A stretch of DNA of 64,000 bases from Dehalococcoidales bacterium. GTDB taxonomy: Bacteria > Chloroflexota > Dehalococcoidia > Dehalococcoidales > RBG-16-60-22. Position 1 is the first letter of the stretch. Every line of letters starts with the position of its first letter. Positions 5,854-59,265 of the stretch are shown here, piece by piece. Made by a program: the position numbers and the translations under genes. The notes beneath the pieces were generated by a model. It worked only from the letters and a program-made list of their open reading frames with translations. It had not been told where the DNA came from and did not search any database. The DNA is taken from assembly GCA_050014095.1 (NCBI GenBank), contig JBEKDZ010000003.1, positions 215,700 through 279,699 of the forward strand, given 5' to 3'.

Positions 5854-6426
5854 TATTTGCCTCTCCTTTTTGATAATTTTCTCGGGACTTTTTGCCACTT
5901 TTGTCACATATAGCTACCTCCCTTTTTTACATTACTTTTTATGATTCAACATAGCGTAGCACAACGGCTACTAAATTGCAACACAAAATTATCTATATAG
6001 CGTATAGTACTTTTAGTTTATACTAGTTCTCGGTAAGAAACTTAAAAAAATAGATAAAGGTAAAGCTATTTTAATACCTGAAACTAATTCTGTCAAATAT
6101 TTGGTTTTTAAGGTTTGTTCAAAACGTAAAATAGCTATAAATCAATCGGAACGAAAGCAGTTATCTGCCTCTCGTTGTCACTCTCCAGACAATCAGGATG
6201 AAAAGCAGACCGGCGGCAAAAGCAGGTACGCCTGAACTTTGGCCAGAAATTAGGAGAGCTTTTCACGACCCATCCCAATATGCTCAAAAGGGTGAGGCAA
6301 ATCTCTACTCTTATAGGCTGATAATATTCTGGACAATATAATTGGTTTTCGTTATACTTTCAGTGTAATAACCAAGAAGGTACGATCAACTTTAAGACGT
6401 GATTGTTGATAGGTCTAAGGGGCGTT

Positions 6427-9400
6427 ATGCGAAGAACATTAGGTCGTGCGGTTCTCCCACTGCTGACACTAGCTTTAGTACTGATAATACTCTGTGCCAG
6501 TTCCGTTAGTGTTCAGGCAGCCACCCCCGCCATTACCATTAATCCAATAAGCGGGCTTCCAGGCACCGTGGTGACCGTTACTGGCTCCGGCTTCAGTGCC
6601 AACGAGACGGGCGTCAGGATAACCTTCGATAGTAACCCGATTACTTCGGCTATAACGGCTGACTCTCTGGGAAACTGGAGCGGCACTTTCACCGTTTCCA
6701 CCGCGGTATTAGGACCCCATACGGTGAGTGCCTTTGGTTCCATTACTCCTTCCGGCGTGGTTCCTAACGTAACTTTTACGTTGCTGAATCCCAGCCTCTC
6801 TATCAGTCCAGCAAATGGGCCTCCGGGTACTTCGGTGACTGTTATCGGCTCAGGCTTTGCCGCCAGTGAAACCGGCATTACAATAACCTTTGACGGTAAC
6901 CCTGTCGCCTCGGGCATTTCGGCCAACTCCCTGGGTAACTGGATCGGTACCTTCATTGTCCCCGCTTCATCCTCCGGTGCCCATAGTGTTAGTGCCTACG
7001 GTCCCATTACCCTGTCCGGTTTTGTTCTTAGCATCACCTTCACAGTCCCGAATCGCATCCTTGCCATTAACCCGAGAAGCGGACCTCCGGGTACTGTGGT
7101 GACCGTCACCGGCTCTGGATTTGGTGCCGGTGAAACCGGCATAACAATAACCTTCGACGGTAACCCTGTCGCCTCGGGCATTTCGGCCGACTCCCTGGGG
7201 AACTGGAGCGGCACCTTCACTGTTCCCGCTGCGCCCTCAGGTGCCTATGCACTCAATGCCTACGGTTCCATTACCCCGGCTGGCTTCATACACTCTATAA
7301 ACTTCATGGTGAACCCCACCATTGCCGTTAGTCCGACAAGCAGGCCTCCAGGCGGTTCGGTGACCGTCACTGGCTCTGGATTTGGTGCCGGTGAAACCGG
7401 CATAACAATAACCTTCGACGGTAACCCTGTTGCCTCGGGCATTTCGGCCAACTCCCTGGGGAACTGGAGCGGCACCTTCACTGTTCCCGCTGCGCCCTCC
7501 GGTGTCCATGCACTCAATGCCTACGGCTCTATCACCCTGACTGGCTTCATACCCTCTATAAACTTCATGGTGAACCCCACCATTGCCATCAATCCGACAA
7601 GCAGGCCTCCGGGCAGTCCGGTGACCGTCACTGGCTCTGGATTTGGTGCTGGTGAAATCGGCATAACAATAACCTTCGACGGTAACCCTGTTGCCTCGGG
7701 CATTTCGGCCAACTCCCTGGGGAACTGGAGCGGCACCTTCACCGTTCCCGATTCACCCTCCGGTTCCCATACGGTGAGTGCCTACGGCTCTATCACCCTG
7801 GCTGGCTTCATACCCTCTATAAACTTCATGGTGAACCCCACCATTGCCATCAATCCGACAAGCGGGCCTCCAGGCGGTTCGGTGACCGTCACCGGCTCTG
7901 GATTTGGTGCTGGTGAAACCGGCATAACGATAACGTTTGATGGTAACCCTGTTGCCTCGGGCATTTCGGCCAACTCCCTGGGGAACTGGAGCGGTACTTT
8001 CACTATTCCTGCTTCAGTTCTAGGGTCCCACAGCGTTGGAGCCAAGGGCTCGATTACCCAGGGGGGCAGCCTCGGTGGAACCAACTTTGGGGTCACACCA
8101 GGTATCTCATTAAAACCCATCTCCGGCTATGTGGGGAGCACGGTTCAAATCAGCGGCTCCGGCTTCGCCGTTAATAGTCCCCTCACCTTTACTTATGACG
8201 ACAAAGAGATTCTGGCAGAAGGGGCCACCACCGATGCTACCGGTAGCTTCGTTAATTCGTTCGTCGTGCCCAAGTCGAAGGCTGGCGGTCACACTATCAG
8301 CGTCACGGACGTGCAAGGGAACAGCGCCAAAACCACTTTCAACATGGATAGCACCCCACCACCCATGCCCGTCCCGCTTTCCCCCGATGACGACGCCAGA
8401 ATTGGTATACTGGGGAACATCACTCCAAACTTTACATGGTCTAACGTCTCCGACCCCAGCGGCGTTACCTACTCTTTTCAAGTGGATACGTACCCGGACT
8501 TCTCTCAGCCTGTATTAGACAAGACGGATATCACGGCCAGTCACTATACTCTAACGGCGATAGAAGCTTTGCCGCGTGGCCAGTTTTACTGGAGGGTTAA
8601 AGCCATTGATGGTGCTTCTAATGAGAGCGCATGGTCACAGGTACGGTTACTAAAGTCCGGGCTCATGCCGCTGTGGGCTCTAGTGCTCATAATCCTGGTC
8701 GGCATCGCCGCCGTAGGCTCAGGTGGCTATTTCGGCCTGCTTCTTCTGAAAACGCGTCGGCGACAGGTAGTAACTGTTCCTGAAATCACGGTGCCTCAGA
8801 TTATTACAGGGGAATGGCGAGAGATTGAATCTGCCGAGGAAACTCCAAAATTACCCTGGAGGCTGTCTCTACCCCAGCCGACAAAAGGAGCCAAGAAACT
8901 CTCTACCGAAGACCAAGCCCGCCTCATGGTGATTATAGACTTTGCTCAGTCTTTGCCCCTGGTGGAGCCCGGTTATAATGTGAACTGGCTGGTTGACCTG
9001 ATAGAAACTGGAAGGGGGATCAAGATGTCAGCTCCGGTTTATAAGCAGTTGCTTAAAGGCGGACTTGAGGTGAGCTATGAGCCACAATGGACGCGCCACC
9101 CCATTTATCAGGACCTGTTGTCCTTATTAGAGGGGCAGTCAATCTTGCAGGACCTGAACGGGTTTGTTGACGCAGTTAACCGGTGCGCCTCCCAAGTAGT
9201 TTCGTTCCTGCAAGATATCTACCAAGATACGATCAAAGAAGCCCCGCCGGGCTTTATGAAGAAGGGTGGTTGGGAATTTATCTCCTCGGTTTACGCTGAT
9301 GCCGTGAGTTGGTTCCGCGGGAAATCTCTGCATGACCCCTCGGAGCGGGACTACATTATAAAACCTCAAAAGGGTCTTGTGCACGGGACAAAGGCCCTAG

Positions 9401-9618
9401 AGTTAAAAGGCGAGGAGACCACATCTTTCGCTGGCCCGATTATACGGGCCTCCAGTGATGAGGAAGCCCTGCGGCTCCGGTCTCTTCACCTGAAGCTGCG
9501 CTGCGCGTACAGGGACAATAACAGGGCTAAAGAAATCGCTACCATGCTCACCCAACTGGAGGTGCAGCGGAGCCGGTTACTTATTTTCTTTAGCGAATTC
9601 GGCAGACTCAAGCAATAA
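6427..9618 (+). CDS. large surface protein: signal peptide, 7 IPT/TIG-like Ig repeats, FN3-like module, one TM helix, ~290-aa cytoplasmic domain of unknown function
   Basis: ATG 6427 gives MRRTLGRAVLPLLTLALVLIILCASSVSVQA (signal peptide). Repeats carry the motif INPxSGPPGxxVTVTGSGFxxxETGITITFDGNPV. TM helix LWALVLIILVGIAAVGSGGYFGLLLL is followed by KTRRRQ. Confidence 0.85.
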   Translation: MRRTLGRAVLPLLTLALVLIILCASSVSVQAATPAITINPISGLPGTVVTVTGSGFSANETGVRITFDSNPITSAITADSLGNWSGTFTVSTAVLGPHTVSAFGSITPSGVVPNVTFTLLNPSLSISPANGPPGTSVTVIGSGFAASETGITITFDGNPVASGISANSLGNWIGTFIVPASSSGAHSVSAYGPITLSGFVLSITFTVPNRILAINPRSGPPGTVVTVTGSGFGAGETGITITFDGNPVASGISADSLGNWSGTFTVPAAPSGAYALNAYGSITPAGFIHSINFMVNPTIAVSPTSRPPGGSVTVTGSGFGAGETGITITFDGNPVASGISANSLGNWSGTFTVPAAPSGVHALNAYGSITLTGFIPSINFMVNPTIAINPTSRPPGSPVTVTGSGFGAGEIGITITFDGNPVASGISANSLGNWSGTFTVPDSPSGSHTVSAYGSITLAGFIPSINFMVNPTIAINPTSGPPGGSVTVTGSGFGAGETGITITFDGNPVASGISANSLGNWSGTFTIPASVLGSHSVGAKGSITQGGSLGGTNFGVTPGISLKPISGYVGSTVQISGSGFAVNSPLTFTYDDKEILAEGATTDATGSFVNSFVVPKSKAGGHTISVTDVQGNSAKTTFNMDSTPPPMPVPLSPDDDARIGILGNITPNFTWSNVSDPSGVTYSFQVDTYPDFSQPVLDKTDITASHYTLTAIEALPRGQFYWRVKAIDGASNESAWSQVRLLKSGLMPLWALVLIILVGIAAVGSGGYFGLLLLKTRRRQVVTVPEITVPQIITGEWREIESAEETPKLPWRLSLPQPTKGAKKLSTEDQARLMVIIDFAQSLPLVEPGYNVNWLVDLIETGRGIKMSAPVYKQLLKGGLEVSYEPQWTRHPIYQDLLSLLEGQSILQDLNGFVDAVNRCASQVVSFLQDIYQDTIKEAPPGFMKKGGWEFISSVYADAVSWFRGKSLHDPSERDYIIKPQKGLVHGTKALELKGEETTSFAGPIIRASSDEEALRLRSLHLKLRCAYRDNNRAKEIATMLTQLEVQRSRLLIFFSEFGRLKQ
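6529..8349 (+). repeat. in-frame tandem repeat array: 2 x 264 bp, 4 x 261 bp, 1 divergent 249-bp unit
   Basis: The marker string ggcat(a/t)acaataacctt recurs at 6874, 7138, 7399 and 7660, with diverged forms at 6610 and 7921. ataaacttcatggtgaacccc recurs at 7297, 7558 and 7819. Repeat 4 versus repeat 5 cores differ at 3 of about 123 nt by manual alignment. Confidence 0.95.
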
Positions 9619-56201: not shown

Positions 56202-56491
56202 AACATCTATAGTTTACAACAAATGATAAACCGAAGCTATCGAGCGTAAAACTAACGCAGTATGACCCGCAGGGAGTCATTAGTTCAAGTCCATTAACGC
56301 CCACCATCGATGCTAGCCGAGGTTTCCTGACCTCGGTAGTGATTCAACTTGACAAAGAGAATCATTTTAATATATACTTTATGTATAGTTCCGGTTTAGG
56401 TTATTATCAACTTCTTAGAATCCCCTTAGATTTTTATCAAGTATTGGATGACCCGAGCTCTAACTAAAATTTTAAGAGAGGAGGCCATCCA

Positions 56492-56680
56492 ATGAGTTTT
56501 CAAGACAAGTCAATCCAGTGTTTAGATTGCAAGACTACCTTCACTTTCACTGCGGGGGAACAAGAATTCTACCAGACTAAAGGTTTTACCAATGAGCCTA
56601 AGCGCTGTTCCTCGTGCCGCCGCATCAACAAAGCACAACGTTCCGATAGTGGCAGCAACAGCTACGCGTCGCGGTATTAA
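56492..56680 (+). CDS. zinc-ribbon domain protein (62 aa)
   Basis: CLDCKTTFTFTAGEQEFYQTKGF...PKRCSSCR pattern of a widespread small CxxC...CxxC family. RBS GAGGAGG. Confidence 0.65.
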   Translation: MSFQDKSIQCLDCKTTFTFTAGEQEFYQTKGFTNEPKRCSSCRRINKAQRSDSGSNSYASRY

Positions 56681-56876
56681 GTCTTCTGCGTATCTATAAC
56701 TAGGTGTCGCCCATAGAATGAAGTTACCTTAAAAGGACAGGCAATATGAATAATTATCTTGTATCGTCTGCCCTCTGGGACTACTAGCAAGACCCTTTAA
56801 AATGATGGCTATATTATCTAAATAAGCCTATCAAGAGACGCCATTTAAATAAATTAGCAAGGAGTGGCCTGCATAA

Positions 56877-57014
56877 ATGAATACGAATAATTTATCAAAA
56901 TCAAGGAAAATATTTATTCGCAGGGAGAAGGCTCGGATTCGCCGGGATGTTTTTGATTTAAAAGAACAGGAGAAATTGATTAGTGGCTTATATTCAATAG
57001 TTCATCAGGCGTAG
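56877..57014 (+). CDS. possible small basic protein (45 aa)
   Basis: Below the track cutoff. MNTNNLSKSRKIFIRREKARIRRDVFDLKEQEKLISGLYSIVHQA. AAGGAG lies 12 nt upstream, which is far. Confidence 0.2.
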   Translation: MNTNNLSKSRKIFIRREKARIRRDVFDLKEQEKLISGLYSIVHQA

Positions 57015-57083
57015 ATACGCTTGGTAAGGCATTTCGATTCAGACAATAAAATTTCCATTACCCAGGAATGAAACGGAGGTATT

Positions 57084-57260
57084 ATGACTTTAGACTCCTT
57101 GTGTGTTCATTGGTGGATGATCGGAGAATACTCGGTAGGTCACTGCAAAAAGTGCGGTGCCACAAGAGATTTTGAAAAACTAAGACAAGAAGAGCAGGCA
57201 CGCAAGAATATTCACAGGGCGAAAATGCATAGTCCAGTCGTCAGTGTTCTCAAATTATAA
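57084..57260 (+). CDS. small Cys/His protein (58 aa), paralog of 57899..58162
   Basis: Below the track cutoff. GGAGGT lies 5 nt upstream. Shares the motif C-x-H-x-W-x-I...G-x-C-K-x-C-G-x-T-[RK]-[DE]-F with the 87-aa ORF. Confidence 0.5.
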   Translation: MTLDSLCVHWWMIGEYSVGHCKKCGATRDFEKLRQEEQARKNIHRAKMHSPVVSVLKL

Positions 57261-57356
57261 TTAGACCGGGTTTTAGGGTCAGGTCACGAGGACCAAATAA
57301 GCCTGGATTGTTTACTTTTATACAAAAGATTGAACTTAACTAGTATCAGAGTATAC

Positions 57357-57881
57357 TTAAACGATAATTTCGGATTTACCCTTTTCACCAGCGCGCAGGA
57401 AGAGAATCGCCGCGATATCACCGGGTTTCAATCCCGCTAAAGCTCTTTCCATATCGTCCGCGCTGTCGATTCTCCCACCATTGATTTCAGTAATAATGTC
57501 CCCGGTTTTTAAACCCGCCTTCTCCCCCAGTAAGCCCGGAGATACCTCCCCGATGATAGCGCCGTGCGTGGGACTCAAACCCATCTGCGGTGCGACGCTA
57601 ACGGCATCGGCGATTTTAATTCCGAAGCGGAGCGGCTGGGAAGGGCGGGCGCCGCCTGATAATAGCTCTTGGATACGGGTACGGTCGAAGCCGATGACAT
57701 CTTGACCGTCAATAACGATAACGGGCACGCCCATCTGCCCGGTGAGGCTAACCATCTCTTCCGCCGCCGCACTATCGCGGGAAACATCGAACTCCTTGAA
57801 CGGTACGCCAAGCTGGCCAAGAAAGCTCTTGGCTTGATAGCAATAGCCTCATGTAGGTGTAGTGTAAATTTTCACGTCCAT
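57357..57881 (-). CDS. glutaredoxin-like domain fused to a PDZ domain, with an in-frame TGA (candidate selenocysteine) at codon 11 in place of the first Cys of CxxC
   Basis: ATG 57881 gives MDVKIYTTPT-TGA-GYCYQAKSFLGQLGVPFKEFDVSRDSAAAEE, in frame (126 nt = 42 codons) with the track ORF 57357..57755. Grx homologs read TPTCPYC at this position. The PDZ region contains GLKTGDIITEINGGRI. Confidence 0.6.
57816..57833 (-). promoter_or_regulatory. SECIS-like hairpin downstream of the in-frame UGA
   Basis: mRNA GCCAAGA-GCUU-UCUUGGC: a perfect 7-bp stem with a 4-nt loop starting with G. The stem begins 15 nt after the UGA (57851..57849). Confidence 0.5.
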
Positions 57882-57898
57882 AGCATCACGTCACCACT

Positions 57899-58162
57899 TC
57901 AGGACTTACTATCTTTATCGATTTCAATGCTCGGCAGCTTCGGCAACCGAAGAGGATTGCCATTTTTCTTTAAAGGATTAAAGGTTGGGAACGCATTAAA
58001 AAACTCTTTAGTTTCACCGCAATATTTGCATGTACCAATACTGCTGGGTCCGTTAGCCACTTCGATTACCCAGAAATGATGGCACGCTTGTTTTTCTGTT
58101 TTTTCTTCAACCATTTCCTTAGTTTTTACTCTCTGTCTCATCACACACCCCCTGTTCTCCAA
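57899..58162 (-). CDS. small Cys/His zinc-ribbon-like protein (87 aa; may start at the internal Met at 58141)
   Basis: ACHHFWVIEVANGPSSIGTCKYCGETKEF. Its stop lies 17 nt before the Grx-PDZ ATG. Confidence 0.55.
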   Translation of the reverse strand: MENRGCVMRQRVKTKEMVEEKTEKQACHHFWVIEVANGPSSIGTCKYCGETKEFFNAFPTFNPLKKNGNPLRLPKLPSIEIDKDSKS

Positions 58163-58327: not shown

Positions 58328-58546
58328 CTATTCGCTATCGTCTTCAAGAACGATTTCAAAGGGGCAGGAGATAGCCCCGGTTGGGCAAACAAGCTCGCAC
58401 ATGGTGCACCAGCCGCATTCGTCGGCTTTGACAACTTTTACCACATTATCCTCCATCGCCAGAGCACCACAGGTACAAATGCTAACACATAAACCACACT
58501 GTTCGCATTTCGCTTCGTCGATTATCGGCACGTCACCCATATTCAT
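58328..58546 (-). CDS. 2x[4Fe-4S] ferredoxin
   Basis: CEQCGLCVSIC and CGWCTMCELVCP cluster motifs, 72 aa. Confidence 0.85.
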   Translation of the reverse strand: MNMGDVPIIDEAKCEQCGLCVSICTCGALAMEDNVVKVVKADECGWCTMCELVCPTGAISCPFEIVLEDDSE

Positions 58547-58602: not shown

Positions 58603-59265
58603 TCATTCCATAATACCGGCGATTTTCTTTAAAACCGCATAGTTAGTGATAATGATACGGTTACGCTCGACCCTGATAGCCCCCTCTTCCTCCAGGTTTC
58701 TGAAGGACCTACCCACCATCTCTCGCGCGGTGCCTATCATCGCCGCCATCTCCTGCTGCGTCAGACGCGGCCTTTCACCGTTCGCGGCATATTCCAGTAG
58801 TATCTTAGCGACCCTGCCATTGACATGGCGGAAGGAAAGGTCTTCAACCAAACCTACCATCTCCTGCACCCGTAGGGATAGCACCTTAATGATATTCAAG
58901 GCAACCTGCGGATATTCTCTGGAGATATTTTCCAGGTCTTTCTTCTTGATACCGTGAAGAGTGACGGCACTCATCGCCGCTGCGCTGGCCAGATTAATCC
59001 CGCCGAGAGCCGGTACATCATTAAAGGAGTCGCCGGGGCGAATGATACGCAGTATCTGCTCCTTGCCGTCGGCAGAGGTCTTGAAGACTTTTACGACGCC
59101 GGAGATGACGAAATACAGCGCTTCGGTAGGTTCTCCCTCGAAAACTACGATATCGCCCCGCACCGCCTTCTTTTCAAAAACATGACTGTTTATCGAAGCC
59201 AGCACGGACTCGCTCAAGCCGGAGAAATAAGGTATATTTTTTAACGCATCCAGGTTTTCCGTCAT
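58603..59265 (-). CDS. Crp/Fnr family transcriptional regulator
   Basis: cNMP-binding fold (GDIVVFEGEP...LYFVISGVVKV) and a C-terminal HTH (QQEMAAMIGTAREMVGRSFRNLE). Start moved to ATG 59265, giving 220 aa. Confidence 0.85.
   Translation of the reverse strand: MTENLDALKNIPYFSGLSESVLASINSHVFEKKAVRGDIVVFEGEPTEALYFVISGVVKVFKTSADGKEQILRIIRPGDSFNDVPALGGINLASAAAMSAVTLHGIKKKDLENISREYPQVALNIIKVLSLRVQEMVGLVEDLSFRHVNGRVAKILLEYAANGERPRLTQQEMAAMIGTAREMVGRSFRNLEEEGAIRVERNRIIITNYAVLKKIAGIME

Follow-up and report, generated by a model that had tools for sequence, protein, structure and literature searches.

The window examined here, a stretch of 64 000 nucleotides from contig JBEKDZ010000003.1 of a Dehalococcoidales bacterium (positions 215 700–279 699), encodes on its minus strand a protein in which a glutaredoxin-like (Grx) domain is followed by a PDZ domain (Grx-PDZ) and in which a UGA codon, predicted here to encode selenocysteine (Sec), stands in place of the first cysteine of the CxxC redox motif. 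The frame runs from an ATG at 57881 to a TAA at 57359..57357 and translates directly as MDVKIYTTPT-TGA-GYCYQAKSFLGQ..., with the TGA at 57851..57849 as the sole in-frame stop inside it. The mechanically generated list of open reading frames (ORFs) holds only the 132-residue part of this protein that begins at Met43 (57357..57755). An earlier note, made from the letters of the window, had remarked on this truncation and had followed the same frame upstream to the ATG at 57881, preceded by GGTGA, to obtain MDVKIYTTPT-TGA-GYCYQAKSFLGQLGVPFKEFDVSRD...; both statements are correct, and its placement of a lone TGA at the first Cys of CxxC is borne out by the translation and by alignment with Cys-containing orthologs. 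The features of the gene, with the basis for each, are as follows.

57357..57881, minus strand: full-length coding sequence of the predicted Grx-PDZ selenoprotein, 174 codons plus TAA, with Sec at codon 11 (translation, Pfam, full-length orthologs of 169–176 residues).
57849..57851, minus strand: in-frame TGA read as Sec, U11 of a U-G-Y-C redox motif (the aligned position in Cys orthologs is always the first Cys of CxxC; TGA in 31 other loci).
57657..57881, minus strand: glutaredoxin-like (YruB/NrdH-type) thioredoxin-fold domain, residues 1–75 [PF00462, TIGR02196, AlphaFold (AF2) model of a Cys ortholog].
57366..57635, minus strand: PDZ domain, residues 83–172 (PF17820/PF13180/PF00595, fold match to the PDZ domains of HtrA/DegP/DegQ).
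57891..57895, minus strand: Shine–Dalgarno-like GGTGA, 9 nt 5' of the ATG (read from the sequence; putative function).
57816..57833, minus strand: bacterial hairpin of the Sec insertion sequence (SECIS) type, GCCAAGA-GCUU-UCUUGGC (fold, conservation in TGA forms, covariation, published criteria).

For domain and profile searches, Cys was put in place of the stop/Sec residue. The N-terminal region matches the Pfam Glutaredoxin family (PF00462) over residues 3–61 with an E value of 6e-20 and a score of 71.6 bits against a gathering score of 22.9, and residues 83–172 match three PDZ families (E values of ~1e-9), PF17820, PF13180 and PF00595, with scores of 38.6, 37.4 and 37.0 bits against cutoffs of 27, 27 and 23.2, respectively. 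These matches, together with that to TIGR02196, agree with the earlier assignment of an NrdH/Grx-like fold fused to a PDZ domain. The motif [RH]FG[LI]K[IV]ADA, which is conserved more strongly than any other in the family, lies in the PDZ domain and, by analogy with other PDZ domains, appears to correspond to its carboxylate-binding loop, with predicted ligand binding. The C-terminus of the chain reads ...KSEIIV-stop.

The AF2 model used for structural comparison is that of a Cys ortholog (P0008) that is 71% identical to the window protein. It consists of two confidently predicted domains joined by a disordered linker (residues 78–82), with a mean pLDDT (predicted local distance difference test score) of 85 and a pTM (predicted template-modelling score) of 0.53; owing to the disordered linker and this pTM, the relative orientation of the domains is undefined in the model. 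The N-terminal domain adopts a β-α-β-α-β-β-α thioredoxin fold, with motif residues 11–14 before helix H12–24 and a cis-Pro region, GVPV, at residues 51–54. It superposes on the dithiol glutaredoxin 7c10 with a root-mean-square deviation of 1.1 Å and a TM score of 0.93; NrdH and Escherichia coli Grx3 were also matched. By sequence, the N-terminal domain matches 4tr0 (E = 1.4e-9) and 4tr1, which we take to be glutaredoxin 3 of Clostridium oremlandii, the enzyme of an experimentally studied Sec-Grx system. The fold of the C-terminal domain matches the PDZ domains of HtrA/DegP/DegQ and of RseP.

A protein search returned 641 relatives, mainly from Dehalococcoidales/Dehalococcoidia, the majority of which comprise 169–176 residues and carry TPTCGYC. 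Among the best 120 of these, 22 are N-terminally truncated products of 132–151 residues, many of them labelled 'S1-C subfamily serine protease' by the Joint Genome Institute (JGI), and one (P0004) reads TPTWGYC. Ortholog DNA was taken from species-representative genomes and metagenome contigs, giving ~60 Grx-PDZ loci of Chloroflexota/Dehalococcoidia. The comparison called for by the earlier note, namely whether Cys or TGA occupies codon 11 and whether the hairpin co-varies, was made at the DNA level. TGA is found exactly at the first-Cys codon in the window and in 31 other Grx-PDZ loci, with TGT or TGC in 28; it occurs in 13 of 26 species-representative Chloroflexota genomes and in 18 further metagenome loci. 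In the TGA forms, the motif is T-U-[GP]-[YWH]-C, and their protein identities span ~35–98%. In all TGA forms, the 150–168 codons after the TGA are open, with no other stops or frameshifts, and the ten codons before it begin with ATG and are conserved at the protein level (M-x-V-x-[IV]-Y-[TS]-[TS]-P-T). The ~90 stand-alone YruB-like relatives recovered in the same scans all have Cys.

When 56 full-length proteins (30 Sec and 26 Cys) are placed on a neighbour-joining tree, the two states are intermixed, and parsimony requires at least 12 Sec/Cys changes on this tree. Sister pairs of opposite state include L003 (Sec) with L001 (Cys), L004 with L005 and L013 with L012. Dynamic exchange of Sec and Cys among orthologs is a classical pattern for redox selenoproteins (PMC1794560), and the interleaving observed in the Grx-PDZ tree is an instance of it.

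The hairpin had been described in the earlier note as a perfect 7-bp stem at 57833..57816 that starts 15 nt after the UGA and has a loop beginning with G, and this description is accurate; the distance from the UGA to the apical loop is 22 nt. The criteria summarized for bacterial SECIS elements (bSECIS), the consensus of which derives from the bSECISearch model of Zhang and Gladyshev, are a loop of 3–9 nt, a stem of 4–16 bp, a G in loop position 1 or 2, 16–37 nt between the UGA and the loop, and a minimum free energy (MFE) of −7.5 kcal/mol or lower (PMC13188914). The window hairpin falls within every one of these limits, with a loop of 4 nt, a stem of 7 bp, G at position 1, 22 nt and −10.1 kcal/mol. 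Perfect 7-bp hairpins with a loop of 3–5 nt that start 12–24 nt downstream accompany 12 of the 1807 TGA triplets in the window (0.7%). The window sequence alone is suggestive, and the decisive evidence that the hairpin is not a chance occurrence is comparative.

Each of the 30 TGA forms that were folded has a hairpin of 7–8 bp starting 18 nt from the U of the UGA, a structure that is largely absent from the Cys forms. For the 27-nt segment, the TGA forms (n = 30) have a mean MFE of −8.47 kcal/mol and the Cys-type Grx-PDZ genes (n = 29) one of −3.89 kcal/mol (Mann–Whitney p = 1.7e-10); for 90 stand-alone Grx genes the mean is −2.04 kcal/mol. The hairpins fall into two subgroups. In the first, which has a 7-bp stem and a 4-nt loop and includes the window, 99% of the cells are paired, and both partners have changed in three of the seven pairs (CG/UA; CG/GC/UA; AU/GC). 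In 500 shuffles, the covariation score, the percentage paired and the number of cells changed on both sides in this subgroup were never attained; the number of pairs with a double change (reached in 45 of 500) and the number of pair types (240 of 500) are unexceptional by the same comparison. As a control in this subgroup, sliding the partner by 1–3 columns lowered the pairing to 33–59%. In the second subgroup the stem register is shifted by one to give 8 bp and a 3-nt loop, e.g. GUGAAAGA-GUU-UCUUUCAC, with 93% of the cells paired and little variation.

Compared with the SECIS of E. coli fdhF, which contains a bulged U, the window hairpin is very short and simple and is without this feature. 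No Rfam family covers it at either gathering or permissive thresholds. The covariance model R1 does not serve as a test of specificity because it also scores Cys homologs and thus captures coding-sequence homology.

TGA is the stop codon of nine out of 48 ordinary window genes, including thrS, the product of which matches its profile from end to end. UGA is therefore a normal stop codon in this organism, without genome-wide reassignment, and only the hairpin-bearing UGA would be read through. Components of the Sec machinery were sought in the window and in the locus DNA by tblastn with E. coli SelA, SelB and SelD sequences, which served purely as probes. The sole genuine match was a SelD in locus L094; a SelB-like match in the TGA-form locus L013 proved to be LepA. 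NCBIfam searches with the 20 larger window proteins identified housekeeping genes only and no SelA, SelB or SelD. According to ARAGORN, the tRNAs of the window are a tRNA-Leu and a tRNA-Gln, and no tRNA-Sec is present there or in 61 loci. In the TGA-form loci, scans for read-through ORFs, among them ORFs with UxxC/CxxU motifs, gave nothing convincing. A separate observation from ARAGORN is an odd tRNA-like gene with a two-base anticodon 'gg' in the Cys-form Grx-PDZ locus L092 (3507–3593, minus strand).

The SelD of L094 (18683–19730, minus strand; TIGR00476, 340 bits) lies ~9 kb from a Cys-form Grx-PDZ gene on a Chloroflexota metagenome contig. Its own active site contains an in-frame TGA (SAG-U-ACK), with a hairpin UAGGUCC-GGG-GGACCUA located 10 nt downstream of the TGA (13 nt from the U of the UGA), and mechanical ORF calling truncates this gene as well. 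Genes for Sec synthesis, selC and selB are known from Dehalogenimonas alkenigignens, as is a SelD whose coding sequence contains an in-frame UGA (PMC4918011), and in BSepDB metagenome-assembled genomes of Dehalococcoidia with 46–49 selenoprotein genes are among the richest of bacteria (PMC13326102). The capacity for Sec insertion is thus supported only at the level of the lineage.

The genes upstream of Grx-PDZ form a conserved neighbourhood, in which a response regulator, a Crp/Fnr regulator, a 4Fe-4S ferredoxin, an 80-residue Cys/His-rich protein and Grx-PDZ are kept together around Sec and Cys forms. Three of these neighbours were delineated in the window.

57899..58141, minus strand: co-operonic 80-residue Cys/His-rich protein with a C-H...CxxC core and an acidic tail (stop 17 nt before the Grx-PDZ ATG; conserved synteny).
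58328..58540, minus strand: co-operonic 4Fe-4S ferredoxin of 70 residues (Pfam Fer4 families; conserved synteny).
58603..59265, minus strand: neighbouring Crp/Fnr-family transcription regulator (NCBIfam and Pfam; conserved synteny).

The 80-residue protein is encoded directly 5' of Grx-PDZ in 17 other loci, in Sec and Cys forms alike. It matches no Pfam or NCBIfam family. Its conserved core is C-[HG]-H-[FY]-W-[VI]-I-[ED]-[VI]-A-N-G-P-x-S-x-G-x-C-K-[YF]-C-G, followed by a conserved acidic tail, ...D-K-[DE]-S-[KE]-S, which in the window protein reads ...EIDKDSKS.

On the other side of the gene, a 1.1-kb spacer (56202–57356) separates Grx-PDZ from dxr in the window. In L001, L002 and L081, dxr starts ~100–300 nt past the Grx-PDZ stop, and L103 carries dxr-rseP-ispG. 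The spacer contains three tiny ORFs on the plus strand: 56492–56680, which encodes a treble-clef zinc-ribbon protein (PF13451, E = 1.5e-20); 56877–57014, which encodes a basic 45-residue peptide; and 57084–57260, the 58-residue product of which is paralogous to the small Cys-rich protein (CVHWWMIGEYSVGHCKKCGATRDF). The spacer showed no match to phage records. Elsewhere in the window, a 1071-residue ORF at 6403–9618 (plus strand) matches TIG/Big_13 and contains internal DNA repeats offset by ~260 nt with 76–86% identity, which are visible as staggered self-matches when the contig extension is aligned to the window. A contig of the European Nucleotide Archive (ENA), ERZ27250059:k141_522885, matches the window with 100% identity as far as ~62792, whereas no alignment to the window exists for its final 519 nt; the window thus appears to stem from another or a longer assembly of the same organism.

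On these comparative grounds, we consider it very likely that the UGA at 57851..57849 is a genuine SECIS-directed Sec codon in a Grx-PDZ gene. The recurrence of TGA at this codon, the hairpin of the TGA forms, its compensatory changes, the interleaving of Sec and Cys and the common operon all support this interpretation, which the earlier note had put forward as a candidate. Several observations weigh against it. Taken by itself, the 61-nt fold of the window is no more stable than its shuffles (z = −1.07), and its loop, GCUU, starts with G-C, whereas G-[G/U] is the prevalent start in the bSECIS consensus. Part of the conservation of the hairpin is likely to be protein-driven, because the stem overlaps the conserved peptide A/V-K-x-F-L. 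The hairpin still folds in four Cys forms (L091, L098, L099 and L102; −6.1 to −8.0 kcal/mol), at codons 7–13 past the Cys codon; these are probably fossil SECIS elements that remain after recent Sec-to-Cys conversion. The 64-kb window, ~7 kb past its left edge and the flanks of the TGA-form loci yielded no tRNA-Sec, selA, selB or selD, and the scans for read-through ORFs, UxxC/CxxU motifs included, found no second selenoprotein gene in the window.

One alternative concerns the residue rather than the recoding: the UGA might be recoded site-specifically to an amino acid other than Sec, either to Cys by a tRNASec-like tRNA-Cys together with SelB or to Trp or Cys by near-cognate read-through. Such tRNASec-like tRNA-Cys species reportedly exist. 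The comparative data prove recoding and a SelB-type hairpin, not the chemical identity of the inserted residue, and one public call, P0004, shows Trp at the codon, most likely as an artefact of translation with code 4. We nevertheless regard this alternative as very improbable. The alternation of Sec and Cys at the catalytic nucleophile in combination with a SECIS-type hairpin is the canonical signature of a selenoprotein, a related lineage contains a Sec-SelD, the Dehalococcoidia are documented users of Sec (PMC4918011, PMC13326102) and the window contains no unusual tRNA.

It is also very unlikely that translation starts downstream of the TGA, for instance at Met43, to give a product consisting of the PDZ domain alone or of half a Grx domain plus PDZ, with the upstream part as an untranslated leader. 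Public annotations do give products of 132–151 residues, under the JGI name noted above. A start at Met43 would, however, halve the thioredoxin fold, with loss of β1-α1-β2-α2, and codons 1–42, including the second Cys of the motif, are conserved at the protein level in all TGA forms and are preceded by an ATG and a Shine–Dalgarno-like site. Moreover, the internal starts chosen by gene callers vary among orthologs (Val, Met or Leu at 24–27 or 43), as would be expected of artefacts.

The earlier note had itself named a pseudogene as the alternative, i.e. a TGC-to-TGA nonsense mutation in a Cys-type Grx-PDZ gene with a coincidental hairpin. The unremarkable z-score of the single-sequence fold, the lack of visible Sec machinery in the window and the treatment of the TGA as a stop by gene callers are all compatible with such an event, but the ortholog comparison contradicts it. 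TGA occurs in 31 other deeply diverged orthologs that have no other stops or frameshifts and conserve both the start and the N-terminal decapeptide; the hairpin is specific to the TGA forms and co-varies; and the operon is conserved. Identical independent decay at one codon in more than 30 lineages is not credible, and a pseudogene is accordingly a scarcely conceivable origin of the TGA. A sequencing or assembly error, as a general possibility in metagenome assemblies, has a negligible probability given that two public assemblies (ENA ERZ27250059 and Logan SRR7028477) agree with the window over the 547-nt gene region at 100% identity, that TGA recurs in the 31 other loci and that close relatives (P0005, 98% identity; P0018, 90%) are truncated alike. 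Because of the recurrence of the TGA, the open downstream frames, the conserved N-termini and the identical assemblies, nonsense mutation, decay and assembly error do not explain the pattern, and a pseudogene or sequencing error is effectively excluded.

The orthology of UGA and Cys, the conservation and covariation of the hairpin, the folds of both domains and the operon are observations; Sec insertion, a catalytic cycle and PDZ clients are proposed along the following lines. The product is proposed to be a cytoplasmic two-domain selenoprotein, with a Grx-like domain carrying U-G-Y-C, a flexible linker and a C-terminal PDZ domain. By analogy with the known bacterial system, the UGA at codon 11 would not be taken as a stop in translation; the hairpin would act as a bacterial SECIS, the G-containing apical loop of which would bring SelB-GTP-Sec-tRNA(Sec) to the ribosome when the UGA reaches the A site. 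From the chemistry of the family, Sec11 would replace the N-terminal nucleophilic Cys of the CxxC dithiol and attack a disulfide or mixed disulfide of the substrate to form a selenenylsulfide, which Cys14 would resolve. Through its PDZ domain, the reductase is probably anchored to the C-terminal tails of specific clients. Candidate reductants are a ferredoxin, thioredoxin reductase or a low-molecular-weight thiol.

The conserved neighbours of the gene, namely the Crp/Fnr regulator, the 4Fe-4S ferredoxin and the small Cys-rich protein, hint at a module for redox sensing or repair, and the 80-residue protein may be a partner of the PDZ-reductase or one of its substrates. A more specific proposal, which we consider speculative and rather unlikely, is that Grx-PDZ, rather than being a general disulfide reductase, supplies the catalysis for a dedicated redox switch that is encoded by this operon in Dehalococcoidia: the PDZ domain would dock onto the tail of the 80-residue (zinc-ribbon-like) protein or of another client, the Sec site would reduce the C...CxxC of the client with electrons from the adjacent 4Fe-4S ferredoxin, and the system would be under Crp/Fnr control. 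The 80-residue protein is rated low as a PDZ client because its polar C-terminus is atypical of the hydrophobic ligands of HtrA-type PDZ domains. If such a switch exists, it would be a PDZ-targeted selenol reductase module without a described counterpart.

Among known systems, the closest are the Sec-containing glutaredoxins. Grx selenoproteins were already counted in 2006, with predicted members in Geobacter, Moorella and Alkaliphilus (PMC1794560), and glutaredoxin (PF00462, UxxC) is tabulated as an experimentally verified prokaryotic selenoprotein (Table 1 of PMC13188914, which cites Kim et al., 2011, for Clostridium oremlandii/OhILAs). Like these, the window protein has a Grx of thioredoxin fold with Sec at the N-terminal nucleophile, a bSECIS-type hairpin within the coding sequence just downstream, and Cys orthologs; the likeness extends to the C. 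oremlandii glutaredoxin structures, with 4tr0 matched by sequence and 7c10 by both sequence and model. The window protein differs in its C-terminal PDZ domain, in U-G-Y-C in place of a CPxC-type context, in its Dehalococcoidia-specific operon and in its YruB-like assignment by hidden Markov model. In view of the YruB/NrdH-like affiliation, dependence on glutathione is doubtful.

The best-scoring curated family is YruB (TIGR02196), which is matched over profile positions 2–73 of 74 with 89.6 bits against a cutoff of 88.55, a small margin obtained with Cys substituted for Sec. The N-terminal domain shares its size, the position of CxxC and the cis-Pro (GVPV) region with YruB/NrdH, and NrdH structures are matched; however, YruB and NrdH are stand-alone Cys proteins of ~75 residues, whereas the window protein has 174 residues, Sec and a PDZ extension. 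A more distant relationship, at the level of a Grx-like fold, exists with the UXX-star Grx-like (seleno)proteins (NF041212, NF041114, NF041211 and NF047338). These families are flagged as containing selenoproteins, and NCBI applies the name of NF041212 to several Cys orthologs of Grx-PDZ. Judging from their names and the motif table of PMC13188914, the UXX-star families appear to be characterized by a Sec placed three residues ahead of the stop, and some of them have a further UxxT motif. The window protein scores 63.2 bits against the NF041212 cutoff of 66, leaves profile positions 67–70 unmatched and continues into a linker and PDZ domain instead of ending in UXX-stop.

The Trx7/PDZ selenoprotein NF041199, a predicted family with CxxU, likewise joins a thiol/selenol oxidoreductase domain to a PDZ domain within a single chain and has Sec in its redox motif. 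That family has a Thioredoxin_7 domain and a 390-position profile, which the window protein matches in the PDZ region only, with 24 bits against a cutoff of 300. The two families share a design idea, and their catalytic domains are not homologous.

The suggestion in the earlier note that a Sec-containing Grx-PDZ protein had not been described stands in part: the PDZ fusion appears to be undescribed, but Sec-glutaredoxin with UxxC is already an experimentally verified family (PMC13188914). A Grx-PDZ fusion selenoprotein has no entry in the tables of the 2026 review, and full-text searches, including glutaredoxin + PDZ + Chloroflexi, returned no paper on one. BSepDB and similar homology-based resources may already list these genes under 'Grx'. 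What appears to be new is the PDZ fusion, the operon context and the systematic mis-annotation, and not the decoding mechanism; the current understanding of Sec decoding is unaltered.

For annotation, the consequence is that a widespread family of Chloroflexota/Dehalococcoidia needs UGA to be read as Sec, which occupies the site in roughly half of the sampled orthologs; the truncated and mislabelled public calls hide a redox domain and part of the selenoproteomes of these organisms. For evolution, the at least ~12 Sec/Cys switches, together with the Cys forms that keep the hairpin, constitute a natural data set on the gain and loss of SECIS elements within a constrained coding sequence. As to function, a PDZ-tethered selenol oxidoreductase encoded in a cluster with a ferredoxin and a Crp/Fnr regulator would point to a client-specific redox role in the strictly anaerobic Dehalococcoidia.

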